Below, piece after piece: positions 46,284 through 54,048 of a stretch of 64,000 bases of DNA; position 1 is the first letter of the stretch, and every line of letters begins with the position of its first letter. The notes beneath the pieces were generated by a model. It saw only the letters and a list, made by a program, of their open reading frames with translations. It made no database searches and was not told where the DNA came from. Source of the stretch: Longimicrobiales bacterium (GTDB taxonomy: Bacteria > Gemmatimonadota > Gemmatimonadetes > Longimicrobiales > Gaopeijiaceae); the NCBI GenBank assembly GCA_965218295.1, contig CBDCKN010000009.1:384001-448000 (forward strand), given 5' to 3'. The translations under genes were made by a program, and so were the position numbers.

Positions 46284-48967
46284 ATGTCTGATGCTATCAC
46301 CCGCCTGAACGCTGCCTTAGAAGGCCGCTATGCCATCGAGCGTGAGTTGGGTGAGGGCGGGATGGCCACCGTGTACCTGGCCGAGGACATCAAGCACAAC
46401 CGCAAGGTGGCCCTCAAGGTCTTGAAGCCTGAGTTGGCTGCGGTTGTCGGTGCCGAACGGTTCCTGACCGAGATCAAGGTCACCGCCAACCTGAATCATC
46501 CGCATATCCTGCCTCTCCACGATTCCGGGGAAGCCGACGGCTTCCTGTTCTATGTCATGCCCTATCTGGAAGGGGAGAGCCTTCGGGACCGGATAGACCG
46601 CGAGAAGCAGCTTCCGGTGGATGAGGCCGTGCGGATCGCCACGGCTGTGGCCAACGCCTTGGATCATGCGCATCGTCACAAGGTCATCCACCGGGACATC
46701 AAACCCGCGAACATCCTGCTCCAGGACGGCGAGCCGGTGGTGGCGGACTTCGGGATCGCACTGGCTGTCGGAGCAGCAGGGGGCACCCGACTCACCGAGA
46801 CGGGACTCAGCCTGGGCACACCCTTCTACATGAGCCCGGAGCAGGCGACGGGTGATCAGCCGGTGGGCGCTTCCACCGACACCTACGCCCTGGGGTCCGT
46901 GCTGTACGAGATGCTGGTGGGCGAGCCTCCCTATCCAGGAACGACCGCCCAGGCAGTGCTGGGCAAGATCATCGCGGGTAAGCCCGTCTCGGCCACAGAG
47001 CAACGTCCGGCGATTCCGGCGAACGTGGACGCGGCGCTGCGGAAGGCCCTGGAGAAGATACCGGCGGATCGGTTCACCTCGGCGCAGGACTTCGTGAGGG
47101 CGCTGGGTGATGAGCACTTCCGGTATGGGGAGGCAGTTGCGAGAGTCGATGGTGCGGTCGCGAGTCCGTGGAATCGAGTGGCGATCCTGGGTTGGAGCGC
47201 TGCTGCTGTATTTGCCGTCACCCTCGGTTGGCCGCTCCTCCGTTCCGAGCCTCCCGAGCCTCCTGGGCCGATCACCCGGGTTTCCGTGCTGATGGGAGAA
47301 GATCAGTCCTTTCATTCCAATTTCGGAGTACTCGACCTTTCGACCGATGGATCGCTCATGGTCTACAGAGGTCGAGGTGATGAAGGGCAACCTCAGGTGT
47401 GGGTGAGGCGGTGGGATGCCTTGGAGGCCACTCCGATCCGAAACACGGACGGGGCTTTCAGCCCGACGATTTCTCCTGACGGTCGCGAGGTGGTTTTTGG
47501 AGTGGCTGGCTCGATTCGGGTCGTCCCCCTCCAGGGGGGTATCGCGGACCCTCACCGAGTCAGCCTGGTGCTGCCCAAGCTGGAGTCCGGAGGGTGATTG
47601 GGTCTATTACGTCAACGTGTCGCGAGGACTGAGCCGCGTGCCAGCGAGCGGTGGACCGCCCGAGGTTGTCACCCAGGTGGATAACACAGCCGGAGACGTT
47701 ATCAATTTGTGGGTGGATGTGCTGCCGGGTGGCAGGGGCGTCTTGTACATGGCGGCGGGGGCTGGGAATACCAACCAAAGAATCCAAGCCCTGGACCTGG
47801 AAACCGGCGAGATCAAGGATCTGACACCGGGCCAGACCCCACGGTACAGCCGCGCCACCGGCGATCTGCTCTTCATGGACGCGAACGAGGGCACCCTTTT
47901 GGCCGCCCCCTTCGACGCGAAGAAGCTGGAACTTACGGGCGCGGCGGTGCCAGTGGCGGAAGAAGTGCTGCAACACGCCCAGGCATGGCCGTTCTTCGAC
48001 ATATCCGCATCGGGCAGGCTTGTTTACCGGACAGGTAGGGGAGGGGATCTCGTCACCCCGGTATGGGTGGAGCGTGACGGAACCGTCCGAGAGGTCGATC
48101 CTGGATGGGAGTTTCCCGGCAACTTTGACCTTTCCAGTGTTGCGCTTTCCCCCGACGGCACCCGGCTCGTCACGTCGATCACGGACTCAGACGGGACCAC
48201 AGACCTGTGGGTCAAGCAGCTGGACACCGGCCCTTTGTTCCGCCTCACGTTCGAGGGAACGGAGAACCTCAGGGCTCTGTGGTCGCGGGACGGACAATTC
48301 GTCACGTTCGTGTCGAATCGTGCGGGACAACGGGATCTGTGGAGAAAGAAAGCGGACGGGAGTGGCCCGGCTGAGCTCGTGCTGGACAGGGAGCGGCCTC
48401 TCCAGGAATTCGTCTATTCGCCCGACGGCACCTGGCTGGTCTTTGTGGAATCAGACGGCGGGACCGCCAACTCCGACATCTACGGCATACGCCCCGGGGT
48501 GGACAGCGTAGCGACTCCGTTGGTCACGGAGGGGTCAAGCGCCGATGAGATGTCACTTTCCCCCGACGGTCGCTGGCTCGCCCATACCTGGGTACAGGAC
48601 GGCGATGTTCAGGTGTACGTGCGTCCCTTCCCCGACGTTGATGCGGGCAGGTGGCAGATATCCACGACTAGGGGCGATGAGGACCGTGTGGGCACACAAT
48701 GGTCGAGAGTTGTTCTATCAGGGCACGACGAACGCTGACGAACAAATGGTTGCCGAAATCATCGGAGATCCATCGTTCGCGGTGGGGGAGCAGCGAGTCC
48801 TGTTTCCCTTGGCCACCTACCTAATCGGGAACGGTCACGCGGGATACGACATCAGCCCGGATGACCAGCGATTGGTGATGCTGAAGGCCGTGGGGGGAGA
48901 GGACGACAGGCAATTGATCCTTGTCGATAACTGGTTCGAGGAGTTGAAGGAGCGGGTGGGCAACTAA
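46284..48967 (+). CDS. Ser/Thr kinase + TM + TolB/PD40 beta-propeller, frameshifts at about 47535 and 48675
   Basis: GEGGMATVY, HRDIKPAN, DFG, YMSPEQ; repeated SPDG motifs; NWFEELKERV C-terminus. Confidence 0.88.
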
Positions 48968-48988: not shown

Positions 48989-49038
48989 TCTCGGGGCGGT
49001 GAACTGAGGGAGCGGAAGCATGAACAAGCCGTTCTTGC
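48989..49038 (+). repeat. ~50-bp direct repeat of the integrase 3' end (partner at 53887-53938)
   Basis: tctcgg-ggcggtgaactgagggagcggaa-gcatgaacaagccgttcttgc vs tctcggcggcggtgaagtgagggagcggaaggcatgaacaagccattcttgc. Confidence 0.9.
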
Positions 49039-49076
49039 TTGCGGTCCACATCTTGGTCGCGCACCTATAAAGCGGA

Positions 49077-49366
49077 CCCGGTCAATAGGACGCACGCCAC
49101 CTAGGGCCTGCGCGAGCAGGCCATCGTAGGTGTTCTTCAGATCCTTCAGCATCCCCAAGTCTCCTGCGGCGTGATGTTGAGAAGTGGTTGGATCACGCGA
49201 CCGATCGAAGGCGAGTCTTGTCAGGGACTCGAGCACCTATTCGGGGTTCGGCCTCTGTAGCGTGGCACGTCCCATGATCTCCTGTGCGAGGTGGGGGGCT
49301 CAGTCAGCAGAAGAAGGTCGTCGAACGACATGCGCGACCAGGAGCTCACCCCGTGGATCCTGAACC
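49077..49366 (-). ncRNA. putative bridge/seek RNA
   Basis: A GGGG-UGA-GCUC...GAGC-CCCC stem encloses segments matching both target flanks; a separate 8-nt segment matches the element end. Boundaries approximate. Confidence 0.75.
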
Positions 49367-50386
49367 TCAAGCGACATGGCGCCACGCCTCACCTGTGCGA
49401 AGCATCGCGTGCACCGCACGAGCGAGCTTGCGTGCGGTGGCGATGCGAGCGACACGCCAATCGAGCCGATCCTTGAGCCGGTCGTAGTACTGGCTGAGCC
49501 AGCTATCGGGAGATCGGCCATGATGGATGACGACGGTCTGGACGAAGGCATTACGGAGCCAGCGGTTGGCACCGGCCGGGATCGGCCCGTAGCGGACGGT
49601 CATCCCGGAACGAGAGGAACGAGGAGCGAGTCCTGCATAGCTCACGAGGTGCTTCGGGCCTCGGAAGCGCTCGATCGGCAGGGTCTCGGTGGCGATCAAG
49701 AGGGCGCGGTAGGGTCCGATGCCGGGAACCGTGCGAAGGAGTTCGACGGCCGGGATCTCGCGGCCGACCTCGAGGATGCGACGGTCGAGCGACTTGATCA
49801 TGTCCTTGAGTTCGTCTGCGATGCGCTCATGCGTGCAGATGAGTCGTTGCTGCTCGGGCCCCATGCGGGGCCAGGCGATGGTATGGACCCAGCCACGTCC
49901 CTCGGCGGTGAGCAACCGACCGCGGGGCAGGCAGAAGCCCAGAGAGTGGAGCTCGGCATGAATGCGCGACGCCGAGGAGGTCCGCATCCGGACGAGTCGG
50001 GCCTGGTGCCGGACGAGGGTGGCCTGCTCGCGTTGGCTGATGGGTTTGCAGTAGACCTCAGGGATGAGGCGCACGAGTTGCATGCGAGCGAGCAGCGTGG
50101 CGTCGATCGCATCGTTCTTGTAGTTGGCCTCGGCGATCGCACGCAGCTTCTTCGCGTGGGCGAGCACGAAGCGACAATCCGGTCCGTTGAGCAACTCGTA
50201 TAGCCAGGGCCAGGACGGACTCGTCTCGACGACGACCTCGAGCGGCCGATAGGCATTCAGCAGCTCAACGAGCCGGTCGGACTCGGTGTTGCGGATGCGG
50301 AGCGGCTTTTGGACGAACGCTCCGTCATTGCTCACGATCGCGACGACGAGGTACGTTGCGTGAGCATCGATTCCTGCGACATACAT
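49367..50386 (-). CDS. IS110-family DEDD recombinase
   Basis: GIDAH, VVETS, KNDAIDA, VPGIG, SYAGLAP...RSG (catalytic Ser), A.ARKL. Confidence 0.95.
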   Translation of the reverse strand: MYVAGIDAHATYLVVAIVSNDGAFVQKPLRIRNTESDRLVELLNAYRPLEVVVETSPSWPWLYELLNGPDCRFVLAHAKKLRAIAEANYKNDAIDATLLARMQLVRLIPEVYCKPISQREQATLVRHQARLVRMRTSSASRIHAELHSLGFCLPRGRLLTAEGRGWVHTIAWPRMGPEQQRLICTHERIADELKDMIKSLDRRILEVGREIPAVELLRTVPGIGPYRALLIATETLPIERFRGPKHLVSYAGLAPRSSRSGMTVRYGPIPAGANRWLRNAFVQTVVIHHGRSPDSWLSQYYDRLKDRLDWRVARIATARKLARAVHAMLRTGEAWRHVA

Positions 50387-50990
50387 GATGGCCTCCTGGT
50401 GGTTGGCAGCCGCAGGTTACTTGGGGAAGTGCCAGCGTAGTGCGCCGGCCGTTGGGAGGCCATCCGCTTTATAAGGTCAGCAGAATCGTGAGACGGTACT
50501 GACTGGCGCGAGTTCTATACATGTGCGTATTGGCCGCACGGAATACGAGTGGAATAGGAGGCCGGACATGAAGGATGTGGCGTTCGGACTAGTGGGCGGT
50601 GCCGTGGGTGCCTTTGTCTGGGCCGCGGTAGTATATGTGACCGAATACGAAATCGGCTGGATCGCCTTGGGAGTCGGCGGGCTTGTGGGTTTCTGCGTAG
50701 CTCTCGGTAACAAGGATCGCGGCAGATCTCCGACGGCTGCTGGCACTCTCGCCGTTGTAATCACAGCCCTCTCCATTGTGGCGGGCAAGTACGCCGCTGT
50801 CGAAATGCTCATGCCGAGCGACGCCGAGCTGGTCGGGATGTTCACAGAGCGCTTCGACGACGAAGAGTATGTCGTCTCGTTCCTCGCAGACGACGTTGCC
50901 GGCGAGTTCCGATCAGCCGGCCGTGAGATGGTCTGGCCGCAGGGGGTCGATCCGGCCAACGCGTCAAGTCAGTCGGACTATCCCCCCGCG

Positions 50991-52221
50991 TGTACAGAGA
51001 TGGTAATGACCTGACAGTTGGCCCTCGCCGGAGCTGTGTCTAGGCTGCCTTCGTCTTAGCCTCCTCCTTCCTGGCCTTTGCGGCCTTCCTGGCGTCGGTG
51101 AGACCGGCCTTGAAGACCTGATAGGGCGTGCGGCCCTCCATGGCTCGACCGCGGTGCGGCCGCTTCCGGTTGTAGGTCTCCAGATACGCCTCGAGGTCCT
51201 GCTGCATCTCCTCGACGGTCTCGTACCAGGTGGTGCGGCCCTTCACCCTCAAGTGCTCGTCGAGGAGCGTGCGGTGGAAGCGCTCGATGAAGCCGTTGGA
51301 CTGGGGCCTGCCCACCTTCGTCGTGCGGTGCTCGATGTCCTCGAGCTGAAGGAACAGCTCATATGGGTGACGGTCCGGACGGCCGCAGAACTCGCGGCCG
51401 TTGTCGCTGAGCACGGTCTTCACCCGGACCCGGTGCTCATCGAAGAACGGCAACACGTCGTTATTCATCACCTGCACCGCCGTGAGCGGGAGCTTGCTCG
51501 TGTAGAGCCGGCCCCAGGCGTAGCGGCTGAAGCAATCGAGCACGGTCTGCAGGTACACCTTGCCGACCCCCTTCAGCGTTCCGACGAAGAACGTGTCCAC
51601 GGCGACGAGGTCGCCCGGGTAATGGACTTCGATGTGGCGCTCCCGGAACTCGGGACTGAAGCGCTCCAGCAGCTCGATCTGCTCGTCGGTCAGCTTCAGC
51701 TTCCGTTCCCTGGCCGTCTCTTCGAGCCTGAGCAGCCGTTCGTGCTTCGTGGTGAGGCCATGCCGGCTCCACACGCCCCGTACGCCTCCTGAGCTCACCT
51801 GGATCCCTCCGAGCAGCAACTCGTCCGCGACCCGCTGAGCTCCGTGCGTCGGAGCCTCCAAGGCGTGGGCCAAGACCGCCTGCTCAATCTCTTCACTCAC
51901 CCGGTTCGGGTGCGGTCCCTTCGGCCCCGGAAGCTGGTCGATCAGCCCCTCGGCCCCGTAAAGCTGGAAGTTCCTCCTGATCTCGTAGAACTGCTGCCGG
52001 CTGTAGCCCACGATCTTGCACGCCTTGCTCACGTTGCCGAGCTCCTGGGCCAACTGTAGCAGGCTCAGCTTGCGGCGCGCTATCTTCTCCCCCTGGACGG
52101 TGGTCATCTTCTCTCCCGTGCTAAGTGAGTGACTTCGACATCTCTCAATTAGCTCCGGCGAGGGCGGCTGGCCACCGTCCTCTCTCGTGGTCAACTGTCA
52201 GGTGAATACCGTCTCAGCACA
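50991..52221 (-). mobile_element. IS481-family element
   Basis: TGT...ACA ends, 30-bp imperfect IRs, 7-bp TSD CCCCGCG. Confidence 0.93.
51040..52107 (-). CDS. IS481-family DDE transposase
   Basis: ELGNVSKAC..GYSR..FY HTH, AVDTF, SDNGREF, NGFIERF. Confidence 0.95.
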   Translation of the reverse strand: MTTVQGEKIARRKLSLLQLAQELGNVSKACKIVGYSRQQFYEIRRNFQLYGAEGLIDQLPGPKGPHPNRVSEEIEQAVLAHALEAPTHGAQRVADELLLGGIQVSSGGVRGVWSRHGLTTKHERLLRLEETARERKLKLTDEQIELLERFSPEFRERHIEVHYPGDLVAVDTFFVGTLKGVGKVYLQTVLDCFSRYAWGRLYTSKLPLTAVQVMNNDVLPFFDEHRVRVKTVLSDNGREFCGRPDRHPYELFLQLEDIEHRTTKVGRPQSNGFIERFHRTLLDEHLRVKGRTTWYETVEEMQQDLEAYLETYNRKRPHRGRAMEGRTPYQVFKAGLTDARKAAKARKEEAKTKAA

Positions 52222-53118
52222 CCCCGCGGTATGGGCCGAGGCGGGTCGACGCTGGACCGAATGGAGCGATGACGAGCGCGCTACGTTCCGCCGGGAAAGG
52301 GAGGCGGAAACACGAGCGAACGTCGAAGCGAGCCTGCCAGAGCTCCGGGCAGCGATCTCCCAGGGGGGGTTTCTCGGAAGCTTCGCCCCAATGGACTTCA
52401 TCTTCTTTGGGCTCGCAATGGTGACCGCCTTCGGACTGGGCTCGGGCAGGAAGACAGCGGAGGAGGTGACGGCGGAGTTCGAACAGGCCATCAGGCTTGC
52501 CATGATGAGAATGATGCTGGCGGATGGCAGCGTTGGTGACGATGAGGTGTCGACGATCGCCGCGGTGTATCAGCAATTGACGGGTGTTGAACTTGCGGAA
52601 GACGCGATTCGAGCTGAGGCGGCGGTCGCACAGTCAGACGGGGCGGACCTCCTAGCCTCCCTCACTGCATTGTCGCCTCATCTCAACGATGAAGGGAAGG
52701 AGATTGTCGTCAAGGCGGCGCTCATGGTGGCGCTTGCGGACGGTGCTGTGGCCGAAGAGGAGAAGATCCTCGTCGGGGAGATCTCCGCGGCCGTCGGGAT
52801 GTCCGAAACCCATCTGCAGGGCACGATCGCGCAGTTCACCAGCCCCACCTAGTCGCGACGGGACCTCCGATGGACTTCGTCGTTGCCGCCGCCAGCGCCC
52901 AAGGACGGTCGGAGAGCGACAATCGGTCGGTGGGGATGGGCGCACCGATCTATTGGGTGGTAGTGGGCCGGAAACTAGGTGGCGAAACCGCCTAGCTGAC
53001 AATTCCTCCTCCCGCCAATCAGGCTCATTCAGCCATCGCCCAACCTCAGCATCACCCATAGCTTGAGCGCACGGGCGTAGCTTTGGGTTTGGCTTCACGG
53101 TCCACGAGCAAAGATCAA

Positions 53119-53330
53119 CTAGGGAGTGAAGGCGATCAGGAGGACCCAAAACAGCAGTTGGATAAAGAACGCCCACACTCCCATCGTCCGTCCCATCTCA
53201 AGGCGATACTCCCTCATCTCCAGCTTGTCGATCCTGTCTCTGTAGATAAGTTCCAACCTGTCTATTTCTTCCATCCCCCACCGTATGTCGATGGTGGCCT
53301 GGAGATCGTCCTCCCAGTATCGCTCCGGTG
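53119..53330 (-). pseudogene. possible C-terminal fragment of a membrane protein abutting the integrase remnant
   Basis: Charged helix plus a C-terminal TM segment; the 5' part overlaps integrase-like sequence. Confidence 0.3.
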
Positions 53331-53332
53331 TC

Positions 53333-53923
53333 ACGACCAGGGCGGTCTCGGATCGGCTCGCGATGGAGATGCGGGTGAACAGCAAGAGGGAAGGCCAGCG
53401 CAGCTACCTTTCTGAGATCCTCGACATCATCAATGGCACAGGCCGCCGGATCTCAGCGGTGTGTTCCCTCACATTTGATGATCTAAAGCTGCATGAGGGC
53501 CCCTACGGCTTGATTTGCTGGCCTGCCGACACGGACAAGATGGGCCACGAATCCACGGTGCCTATTTCGCCACCCGTAAGGGCCGCTCTCGACAGAATCC
53601 TCGCAGAGCGGCCAGGCATCGGGGCAGCGCCCTTGTTTCCCTCGCCAGGCGATCCCACAAAGCCCATGACGCGCCACCTTGCAGACAAGTGGCTGCGGAA
53701 GGCGGAGAGGCTTGCGGGGCTGGAGCCGCTCAAGGGGAGCCTGTGGCATGCGTACCGGCGGAAGTGGGGCTCGGAGCGCAAGCACATGCCCGATGTTGAC
53801 GTAGCTGCGGCGGGCGGCTGGAAGGACACCGTAAGCCTCAAACGCGCCTACCAGCAGGCCGATGCCGATACTATCTTATCTGTCGTTCTCGGCGGCGGTG
53901 AAGTGAGGGAGCGGAAGGCATGA
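53333..53923 (+). pseudogene. tyrosine recombinase/integrase, catalytic domain only (5'-truncated)
   Basis: TGRRISAV (catalytic R), DK, WHAYRR (H-x-x-R), GGW, AY. Confidence 0.85.
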
Positions 53924-53974
53924 ACAAGCCATTCTTGCACACAACATTGCACACCGCAGCCAAAAGTTGTTGCA

Positions 53975-54048
<74 letters not shown>

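Follow-up and report, generated by a model that had tools for sequence, protein, structure and literature searches.

The window, by which we mean the whole 64,000-nucleotide stretch analysed here, contains what we read, with a probability of roughly 0.87, as an intact IS110-family insertion sequence (IS) of IS1111-like layout. The element has inserted into an attC-type site, where its 2-bp CA core lies 15 nt in from the R' end. It is likely mobilised through RNA-guided recombination, with a predicted bridge/seek RNA that is encoded downstream of its gene. The features on which this reading draws are listed below in window coordinates.

49037..49061, plus strand: left remnant of the attC-type target, of which 49054-49061 are read by the predicted first target guide
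49062..49063, plus strand: 2-bp core CA (TG on the gene strand) at the right-end junction, placed by the empty-allele contig and by empty sites
49064..50477, minus strand: body of the IS element, 1414 bp (1416 bp with one core)
49066..49076, minus strand: subterminal inverted repeat of the right end, 11 bp
49080..49085, minus strand: outward-facing -35-like TTGAC of a predicted junction promoter
49213..49230, minus strand: predicted 3' hairpin after the donor loop, with one pair changed on both sides in 4 of 10 aligned rows
49232..49240, minus strand: right donor guide (49236-40) with core (49234-35) and handshake bases (49232-33)
49275..49283, minus strand: position of the left donor guide with core, a conserved block of columns with a weak match to the left end
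49293..49352, minus strand: target-binding loop of the predicted bridge/seek RNA, with three pairs of its outer stem changed on both sides
49303..49312, minus strand: second target guide (49307-12) with core (49305-06) and handshake AC (49303-04)
49331..49340, minus strand: first target guide (49333-40) with core (49331-32)
49367..50386, minus strand: IS110-family DEDD recombinase, 339 aa, with D7, E54, D92, D95 and S260
50387..50397, minus strand: ribosome-binding site (RBS) AGGAGG, in one arm of a 10-bp hairpin
50455..50464, minus strand: anti-RBS arm of the predicted hairpin
50463..50473, minus strand: subterminal inverted repeat of the left end, 11 bp
50478..50479, plus strand: 2-bp core at the left-end junction, placed by the empty-allele contig
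50480..50495, plus strand: right part of the attC site, of which 50480-85 are read by the predicted second guide

Guides of the predicted RNA and their covariation

A preliminary description pointed to three matches between the non-coding region and the ends and flanks of the element, and all of them hold. The 10-nt segment at 49331-40 equals 49054-63 letter for letter, 49307-12 corresponds to 50480-85 in a match that extends to 10 nt (49303-12 = 50476-85), and 49233-40 matches the element end at 49061-68. The 10-nt run across the junction is made up of six guide, two core and two handshake bases. The arrangement of right guide, core and handshake guide is as given for IS621 in the available text of PMC11208158. 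When the 290-nt non-coding region is shuffled 5000 times with its dinucleotides preserved, the two 10-mers recur in 3 and 6 cases, and the 7-mer end match (49062-68) in 58. The second donor guide had not been located before; a position can now be assigned to it (49275-83), but it matches the left end poorly and does not covary with it.

In a 10-row alignment 88.6% of the cells of the predicted structure are paired and 5 of its 21 pairs show changes on both sides. This structure outscores all slid controls, and RNAalifold returns the same two-loop frame. Folding of the whole 290-nt region, which the preliminary description had proposed as a check, is uninformative, being no better than shuffles (z -0.11). 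The target loop alone reaches z -1.88 against shuffles, and the donor loop alone is no better than its shuffles (z 0.65-0.66). The non-coding region has no match in Rfam. Gene-less copies of the RNA were not found in the element's own genome, where all five matches lie in the window and C3 copies.

We recovered 16 elements with both ends and aligned 14 of them, the other two (L004 and L008) having been missed by the left-end pattern. Removal of the near-duplicates L001 (of L003) and L011 (of L007) left 12 elements in which covariation could be followed. Because these elements are kin rather than independent and the permutations ignore relatedness, the results are to be taken as counts and not as p-values: the first target guide agrees with its own flank at 78/82 positions (permuted mean 31.9), the second at 51/72 (permuted 23.6), and the right donor guide with its own right end at 55/60 (permuted 49.1, with 151/20000 permutations reaching 55), whereas the left donor guide agrees with the left end at only 33/72 (permuted 32.2). 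Both target guides therefore track their flanks, which is the behaviour that the preliminary description had proposed looking for in homologues. Where the right end has changed, in L015, L017 and L018, the right donor guide has changed with it. There are two exceptions, L004, whose left flank is unfit for its guide, and L022, whose right donor guide agrees at 1/5 in the aligned column. L008, which stands outside the set of 12, fits its guides when judged by eye.

The handshake bases behave similarly. In 11 of the 12 elements the target loop has as its second handshake base the one found at position two of the left end (6.3 permuted), and in 11 of 12 the donor loop's first handshake base is identical to the first base of the target (5.5 permuted). 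Every one of the 12 has zero or one handshake pair before and two to four after exchange. The window element has none before and three after, and IS621 is credited with one and three in the available text of PMC13626964. Two opposite-strand target guides that covary with the flanks, a right donor guide and handshake guides are all marks of a bridge/seek RNA; covariation between the left donor guide and the left end, a further mark, is not seen among these 12 elements.

The constancy of the left donor guide would suit a seekRNA-type variant, in which the target loop alone works as a short processed RNA, the protein recognises both ends through their subterminal repeats and the donor loop has become a relic. 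The conserved long inverted repeats also fit this variant, and IS1111 elements are described in the available text of PMC11187229 as co-purifying mainly with RNAs of 82-96 nt that carry target matches only. However, the right donor guide tracks the right end, and agreement of the first handshake base with the target base in 11 of 12 elements is not expected of a relic. We consider this variant unlikely and favour RNA-guided recombination by a predicted RNA that has both a target and a donor loop.

The attC-type target and the core

The flanks of the window copy and of two further copies (C3 and C2) belong to one repeat family. One member, C1:80246-80346, is intact: it spans 101 bp, with CTAAC at one end and GTTAG at the other, and forms an imperfect hairpin of -24.3 kcal/mol; the emptied C3 site folds at -17.2 kcal/mol with its R boxes unpaired. 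The left remnant in the window matches attC-like repeats at C9:270371 and C13:28822 as well as the flank of the C3 copy, and the arm upstream of ~49037 has been replaced by other sequence. On the right, the R' box, which starts at 50495, is degenerate from 50496, where the C3 copy and the empty sites continue into GTTAG. The window's own attC is a relic at both ends. The element's own genome (G000) holds scattered attC relics, and no integron integrase above the cut-off was found in its assembly (90.7% complete). Three related genomes, G356, G401 and G402, all carry an integron integrase; in two of them, G356 and G402, the cassettes that adjoin it are set apart by repeats of the same family. 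The G402 array also contains a left end 93% identical to that of the window element, at the same position in an attC.

All four insertions of the window element or of a relative above 90% identity (window, C3, C2 and L038:17051) lie in attC-type repeats and at the same position. Where R' is intact the core lies 15 nt inside it. The orientation of insertion is opposite to the cassette direction, as in the IS1111-attC group, and the position near R' differs from the R''-end position of ISKpn4, ISPst6, ISPa21 and ISPa25. The relatives L001, L003, L005, L007 and L011 also occupy attC near R', 15-16 nt from an R'-type box and in the same orientation. That the guides spell the element's own site had been recognised before, but that this site is of the integron attC class had not.

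In the element's own genome the 15-nt target is matched at 9 sites when up to 2 mismatches are allowed and at 173 when up to 3 are, and most of these sites are not attC (a script flags 1/9 and 7/173, and about 3/9 are attC by eye). That insertions nevertheless fall in attC-type repeats in four of four cases could mean that the guide alone is insufficient and that a folded or accessible attC hairpin helps in the choice of site. However, the occupied sites fit the guides better than most alternatives do (13/13 in the window, 12/13 in C3), selection removes insertions into genes, and relatives with the same RNA scaffold use targets other than attC. Such help from the hairpin appears quite improbable to us, and we retain the reading in which the guides direct insertion.

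A contig of run X2, one of four runs, joins 49061 to 50478 and so skips 1416 bp, with an ambiguity of two letters. The contig goes on along the window's right flank, and its short side measures 21 nt. This is the empty site for which a search of the reads had been suggested, and it represents precise removal with one short core copy left behind, as is typical of the IS110 family. No circle junction was seen in the four runs, all of which are contigs. The nine unoccupied look-alike sites printed for the element's own genome all have CA and three more bases before GAA or a variant of it, and TG rather than TGC is common to the junctions of relatives. The 1416-bp skip, the look-alike sites and the relatives' TG together place the cores at 49062-63 and 50478-79 and the element at 49064-50477. 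The core is therefore the 2-bp CA and not GCA, which the preliminary description had placed at both junctions; its empty target and its circle junction were each 3 bp off. In L017/L009 and L018 the core is TG at the left junction, whereas the right junction and the first target guide have CG; the first base of the core thus need not be the same in target and donor. A 1-nt core, tried for L001/L003, was dropped since the TG core accounts for all junctions.

A 3-bp GCA core, which would make the empty site shorter by 3 bp, can be dismissed as extremely improbable, for although GCA stands at both window junctions and one attC of G402 (L039:227-321) has the shorter form, which thus occurs in nature though not at the window locus, such a core predicts a skip of 1419 bp, the look-alike sites are longer in 9/9 cases, the shorter site has no match in the element's own genome, and some relatives lack GCA at one junction, with ACC-TG-ACC instead of TGC at the left, which excludes it as the shared core.

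Recombinase, element ends and other copies

The reading frame at 49367-50386 is intact, as stated earlier, and its product matches NF033542 at 195 bits (cut-off 140) as well as the domains PF01548 and PF02371. The residues D7, E54, D92, D95 and S260 are present in 14/14 aligned clade members, and the combination of a DEDD RuvC domain with PF02371 and its catalytic serine is that of the IS110 family. Among 7997 candidates, 948 proteins are related at E <= 1e-40. Solved structures are remote (PDB 9t56, E 1e-8; 8wt6, E 3e-7). Among the 30 listed of 2281 plasmid records with a match, the best reach ~34% identity, and the nearest of the matches listed are haloarchaeal and rhizobial IS110 elements at ~33%.

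The earlier label "IS1111-type" applies to the layout of the element, but its recombinase falls outside the core IS1111 clade. Its identity to ISPa21 is 18-19% along the whole alignment (27% locally, over 129 aa) and its identity to IS4321 is 20%, whereas ISPa21 and IS4321 share 29-30% identity and branch together, apart from the window clade, in an unrooted FastTree tree of 20-22 proteins. At 18-20% identity we find no full-length relation to IS1111-type proteins, a placement that is provisional because it rests on two IS1111 references, ISPa21 and IS4321.

The non-coding DNA amounts to ~300 bp downstream of the gene and ~90 bp upstream, a layout like that of the IS1111 group. The 11-bp subterminal inverted repeats reported before are present letter for letter. 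The spacing rule for inverted repeats of the IS1111 group includes a part of 3 bp. The repeats of the window element lie 7 and 3 bp from its ends, as in that group, and the 7-bp part of the rule is given in the available text of PMC11187229. In the computed circle the 10-bp inner repeats are separated by 3 + 7 bp. The right-end repeat keeps 9-10 of 10 positions in 9/14 elements and 6/10, without gaps, in the five that have a 1-nt offset. The outward TTGAC noted earlier is also there, and it occupies the same position in 14/14 computed circle junctions; 22 nt, rather than 17, separate it from a TATAAA-like hexamer in the left end. The 10-bp inverted repeat around the start of the gene (50387-96 / 50455-64) likewise stands letter for letter. 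A helix of at least 8 bp covers the RBS in 12/17 loci, with changes on both sides; it has 7 bp or fewer in L001, L003, L005, L007 and L015 and is weak in the closest relatives. This hairpin would damp translation.

Matches to the element occur in 4/401 genomes phylum-wide and 10/401 class-wide, its own genome included, and collection scans gave a further 2 and 3 loci which, where labelled, belong to Gemmatimonadales and Longimicrobiales. L020 and L024, at 50-53% identity, occupy attC-like sites at the R' crossover point and use the top strand; only the left end of L024 falls within its locus. The targets of L017 and L018 are palindromic repeats, and that of L008 is presumably a transposon-end-like repeat. 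Since the targets of relatives differ, the RNA scaffold has been naturally reprogrammed.

Two broken copies are present in the element's own genome (C3:372240-378978 and C2:63497-64150), which also holds very many near-identical IS copies of ~1.4-1.6 kb. The C3 copy (within C3:372216-378990) sits in an intact attC, is split by three other IS insertions and is partly duplicated. Its right end has become attached to an internal CA (window 49913-14), a branch supported by unitigs ending at 49914 in X2, X4 and X6. The C2 copy has lost its right end and RNA through a deletion into the attC arm, and its junction is found in run X1. We did not count this deletion as a recombinase event, its junction lying in a microhomology of 5-6 nt. 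In G402, L015:2619-3114 contains an exact 248-bp tandem duplication that starts just after the TG core in the element's own second-target-guide DNA and ends at the right-end core. As the guide DNA mimics the left junction, the recombinase seems here to have acted on the gene of its own RNA. At 49303-12 the window carries the same 10-bp mimic of the left junction.

Several neighbouring features of the window were also recorded. The gene downstream of the attC relic seems to be interrupted by an IS481-family element (51040-52194), which leaves two parts (50523-51014 / 52187-52852), the second with a TerB domain. Immediately to the left of the attC remnant is a 45-bp repeat (48995-49038; 93%), which recurs at 53894-53938, between a phage-integrase fragment (53285-53923) and tRNA-Ile (53975-54048); it is possibly the end of an integrative element that cut the attC. 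A Ser/Thr kinase with PD40 repeats (46284-48738) is read in two overlapping frames (46284-47597 and 47416-48738), which suggests a frameshift.

Proposed mechanism and relation to known systems

By analogy with IS621 (PMC11208158, PMC13626964) and ISEc11/ISKpn4 (PMC11187229), as far as the available text of these papers describes them, the element would be excised as a circle in which right end, core and left end are joined, the inverted repeats are brought 10 bp apart (3 + 7) and a promoter is formed. The target loop of the predicted RNA would pair with both attC strands around the core, and firm pairing of the donor loop would be confined to the right end. What holds the left end is probably the contact between the protein and the inverted repeat, together with the handshake pairs, since the left donor guide is near constant while the left end changes. 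RNA-guided synapsis would be followed by cleavage at the DEDD and serine sites and by handshake-driven exchange, and the gain from no handshake pairs to three would favour insertion. Insertion would part the attC arms by 1.4 kb, and the cassette would then be locked until precise excision.

The IS1111-attC group was reportedly the subject of studies by Tetu & Holmes (2008) and Post & Hall (2009). attC is an established target class of IS1111 elements with seekRNAs (PMC11187229). In the available text of that paper, the members ISKpn4, ISPst6, ISPa21 and ISPa25 resemble the window element in targeting attC opposite to the cassette direction, in their subterminal inverted repeats, in an RNA encoded downstream of the transposase and in a top-strand match 5' of the bottom-strand match. 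However, members are 46-90% identical to one another, and the window protein, at 18-19% to ISPa21, falls short of the identity of at least ~46% that would join it to them. ISPa21 of pME-1a, named in PMC7232449, lies just inside R'', unlike the window element near R', and the targets of ISKpn4, ISPst6 and ISPa25 are at the R'' end in Table 1 of PMC13604230. The element thus works like the IS1111-attC group but differs in protein identity and attC position, which argues for a separate lineage.

With IS621 and ISCro4, as presented in the available text of PMC11208160, PMC11208158 and PMC13626964, the window element shares a predicted two-loop RNA with target and donor guides, a 2-nt core, 2-nt handshake guides, the DEDD and serine catalytic set and three handshake pairs after exchange. 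Unlike theirs, its RNA region lies downstream rather than upstream of the gene and its core is CA/TG rather than CT. It also differs from them in its 11-bp inverted repeats and weak left donor guide, and the protein similarity is only remote (PDB 9t56, 8wt6). An IS1111-like layout combined with a protein outside the tight IS1111 cluster is also found in divergent IS110 groups (ISAcp5, ISHvo10, ISAzs32 and ISCARN28), for which PMC11187229 and PMC11208160, in their available text, give downstream non-coding regions or an IS1111 label. No close named element was found in these comparisons, outside which the ISfinder set lay.

The RNA-guided mechanism of IS110/IS1111 elements and the targeting of attC are already known. 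A description of this lineage, attC position and core was not found in the literature searched, to which subscription papers, bioRxiv supplements and ISfinder did not belong. We tentatively suggest, at slightly less than even odds, that the IS1111 layout and the targeting of attC evolved independently in an IS110 lineage that is centred on Gemmatimonadota and stands outside the IS1111 clade. This lineage would have been retuned to two or more positions within attC (on the bottom strand near L'/R' in the window element, and on the top strand at the R' crossover in L020/L024) and to several repeats other than attC, would read its donor one-sidedly (right guide and handshake, with the left guide frozen) and could recombine with its own guide DNA, as in the 248-bp duplication of L015.

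If this is true, donor reading of this one-sided kind would fall between the bridge RNA and seekRNA models, as an intermediate, and attC targeting would have arisen convergently at another position. Because the donor loop covaries on one side only, whether IS1111-type ends are recognised by the donor loop or by inverted repeats becomes directly testable by single guide swaps. The element would provide for this a natural and, to all appearances, active 339-aa ortholog with a fully readable predicted RNA and a CA/TG core, on a branch far from the tested systems.
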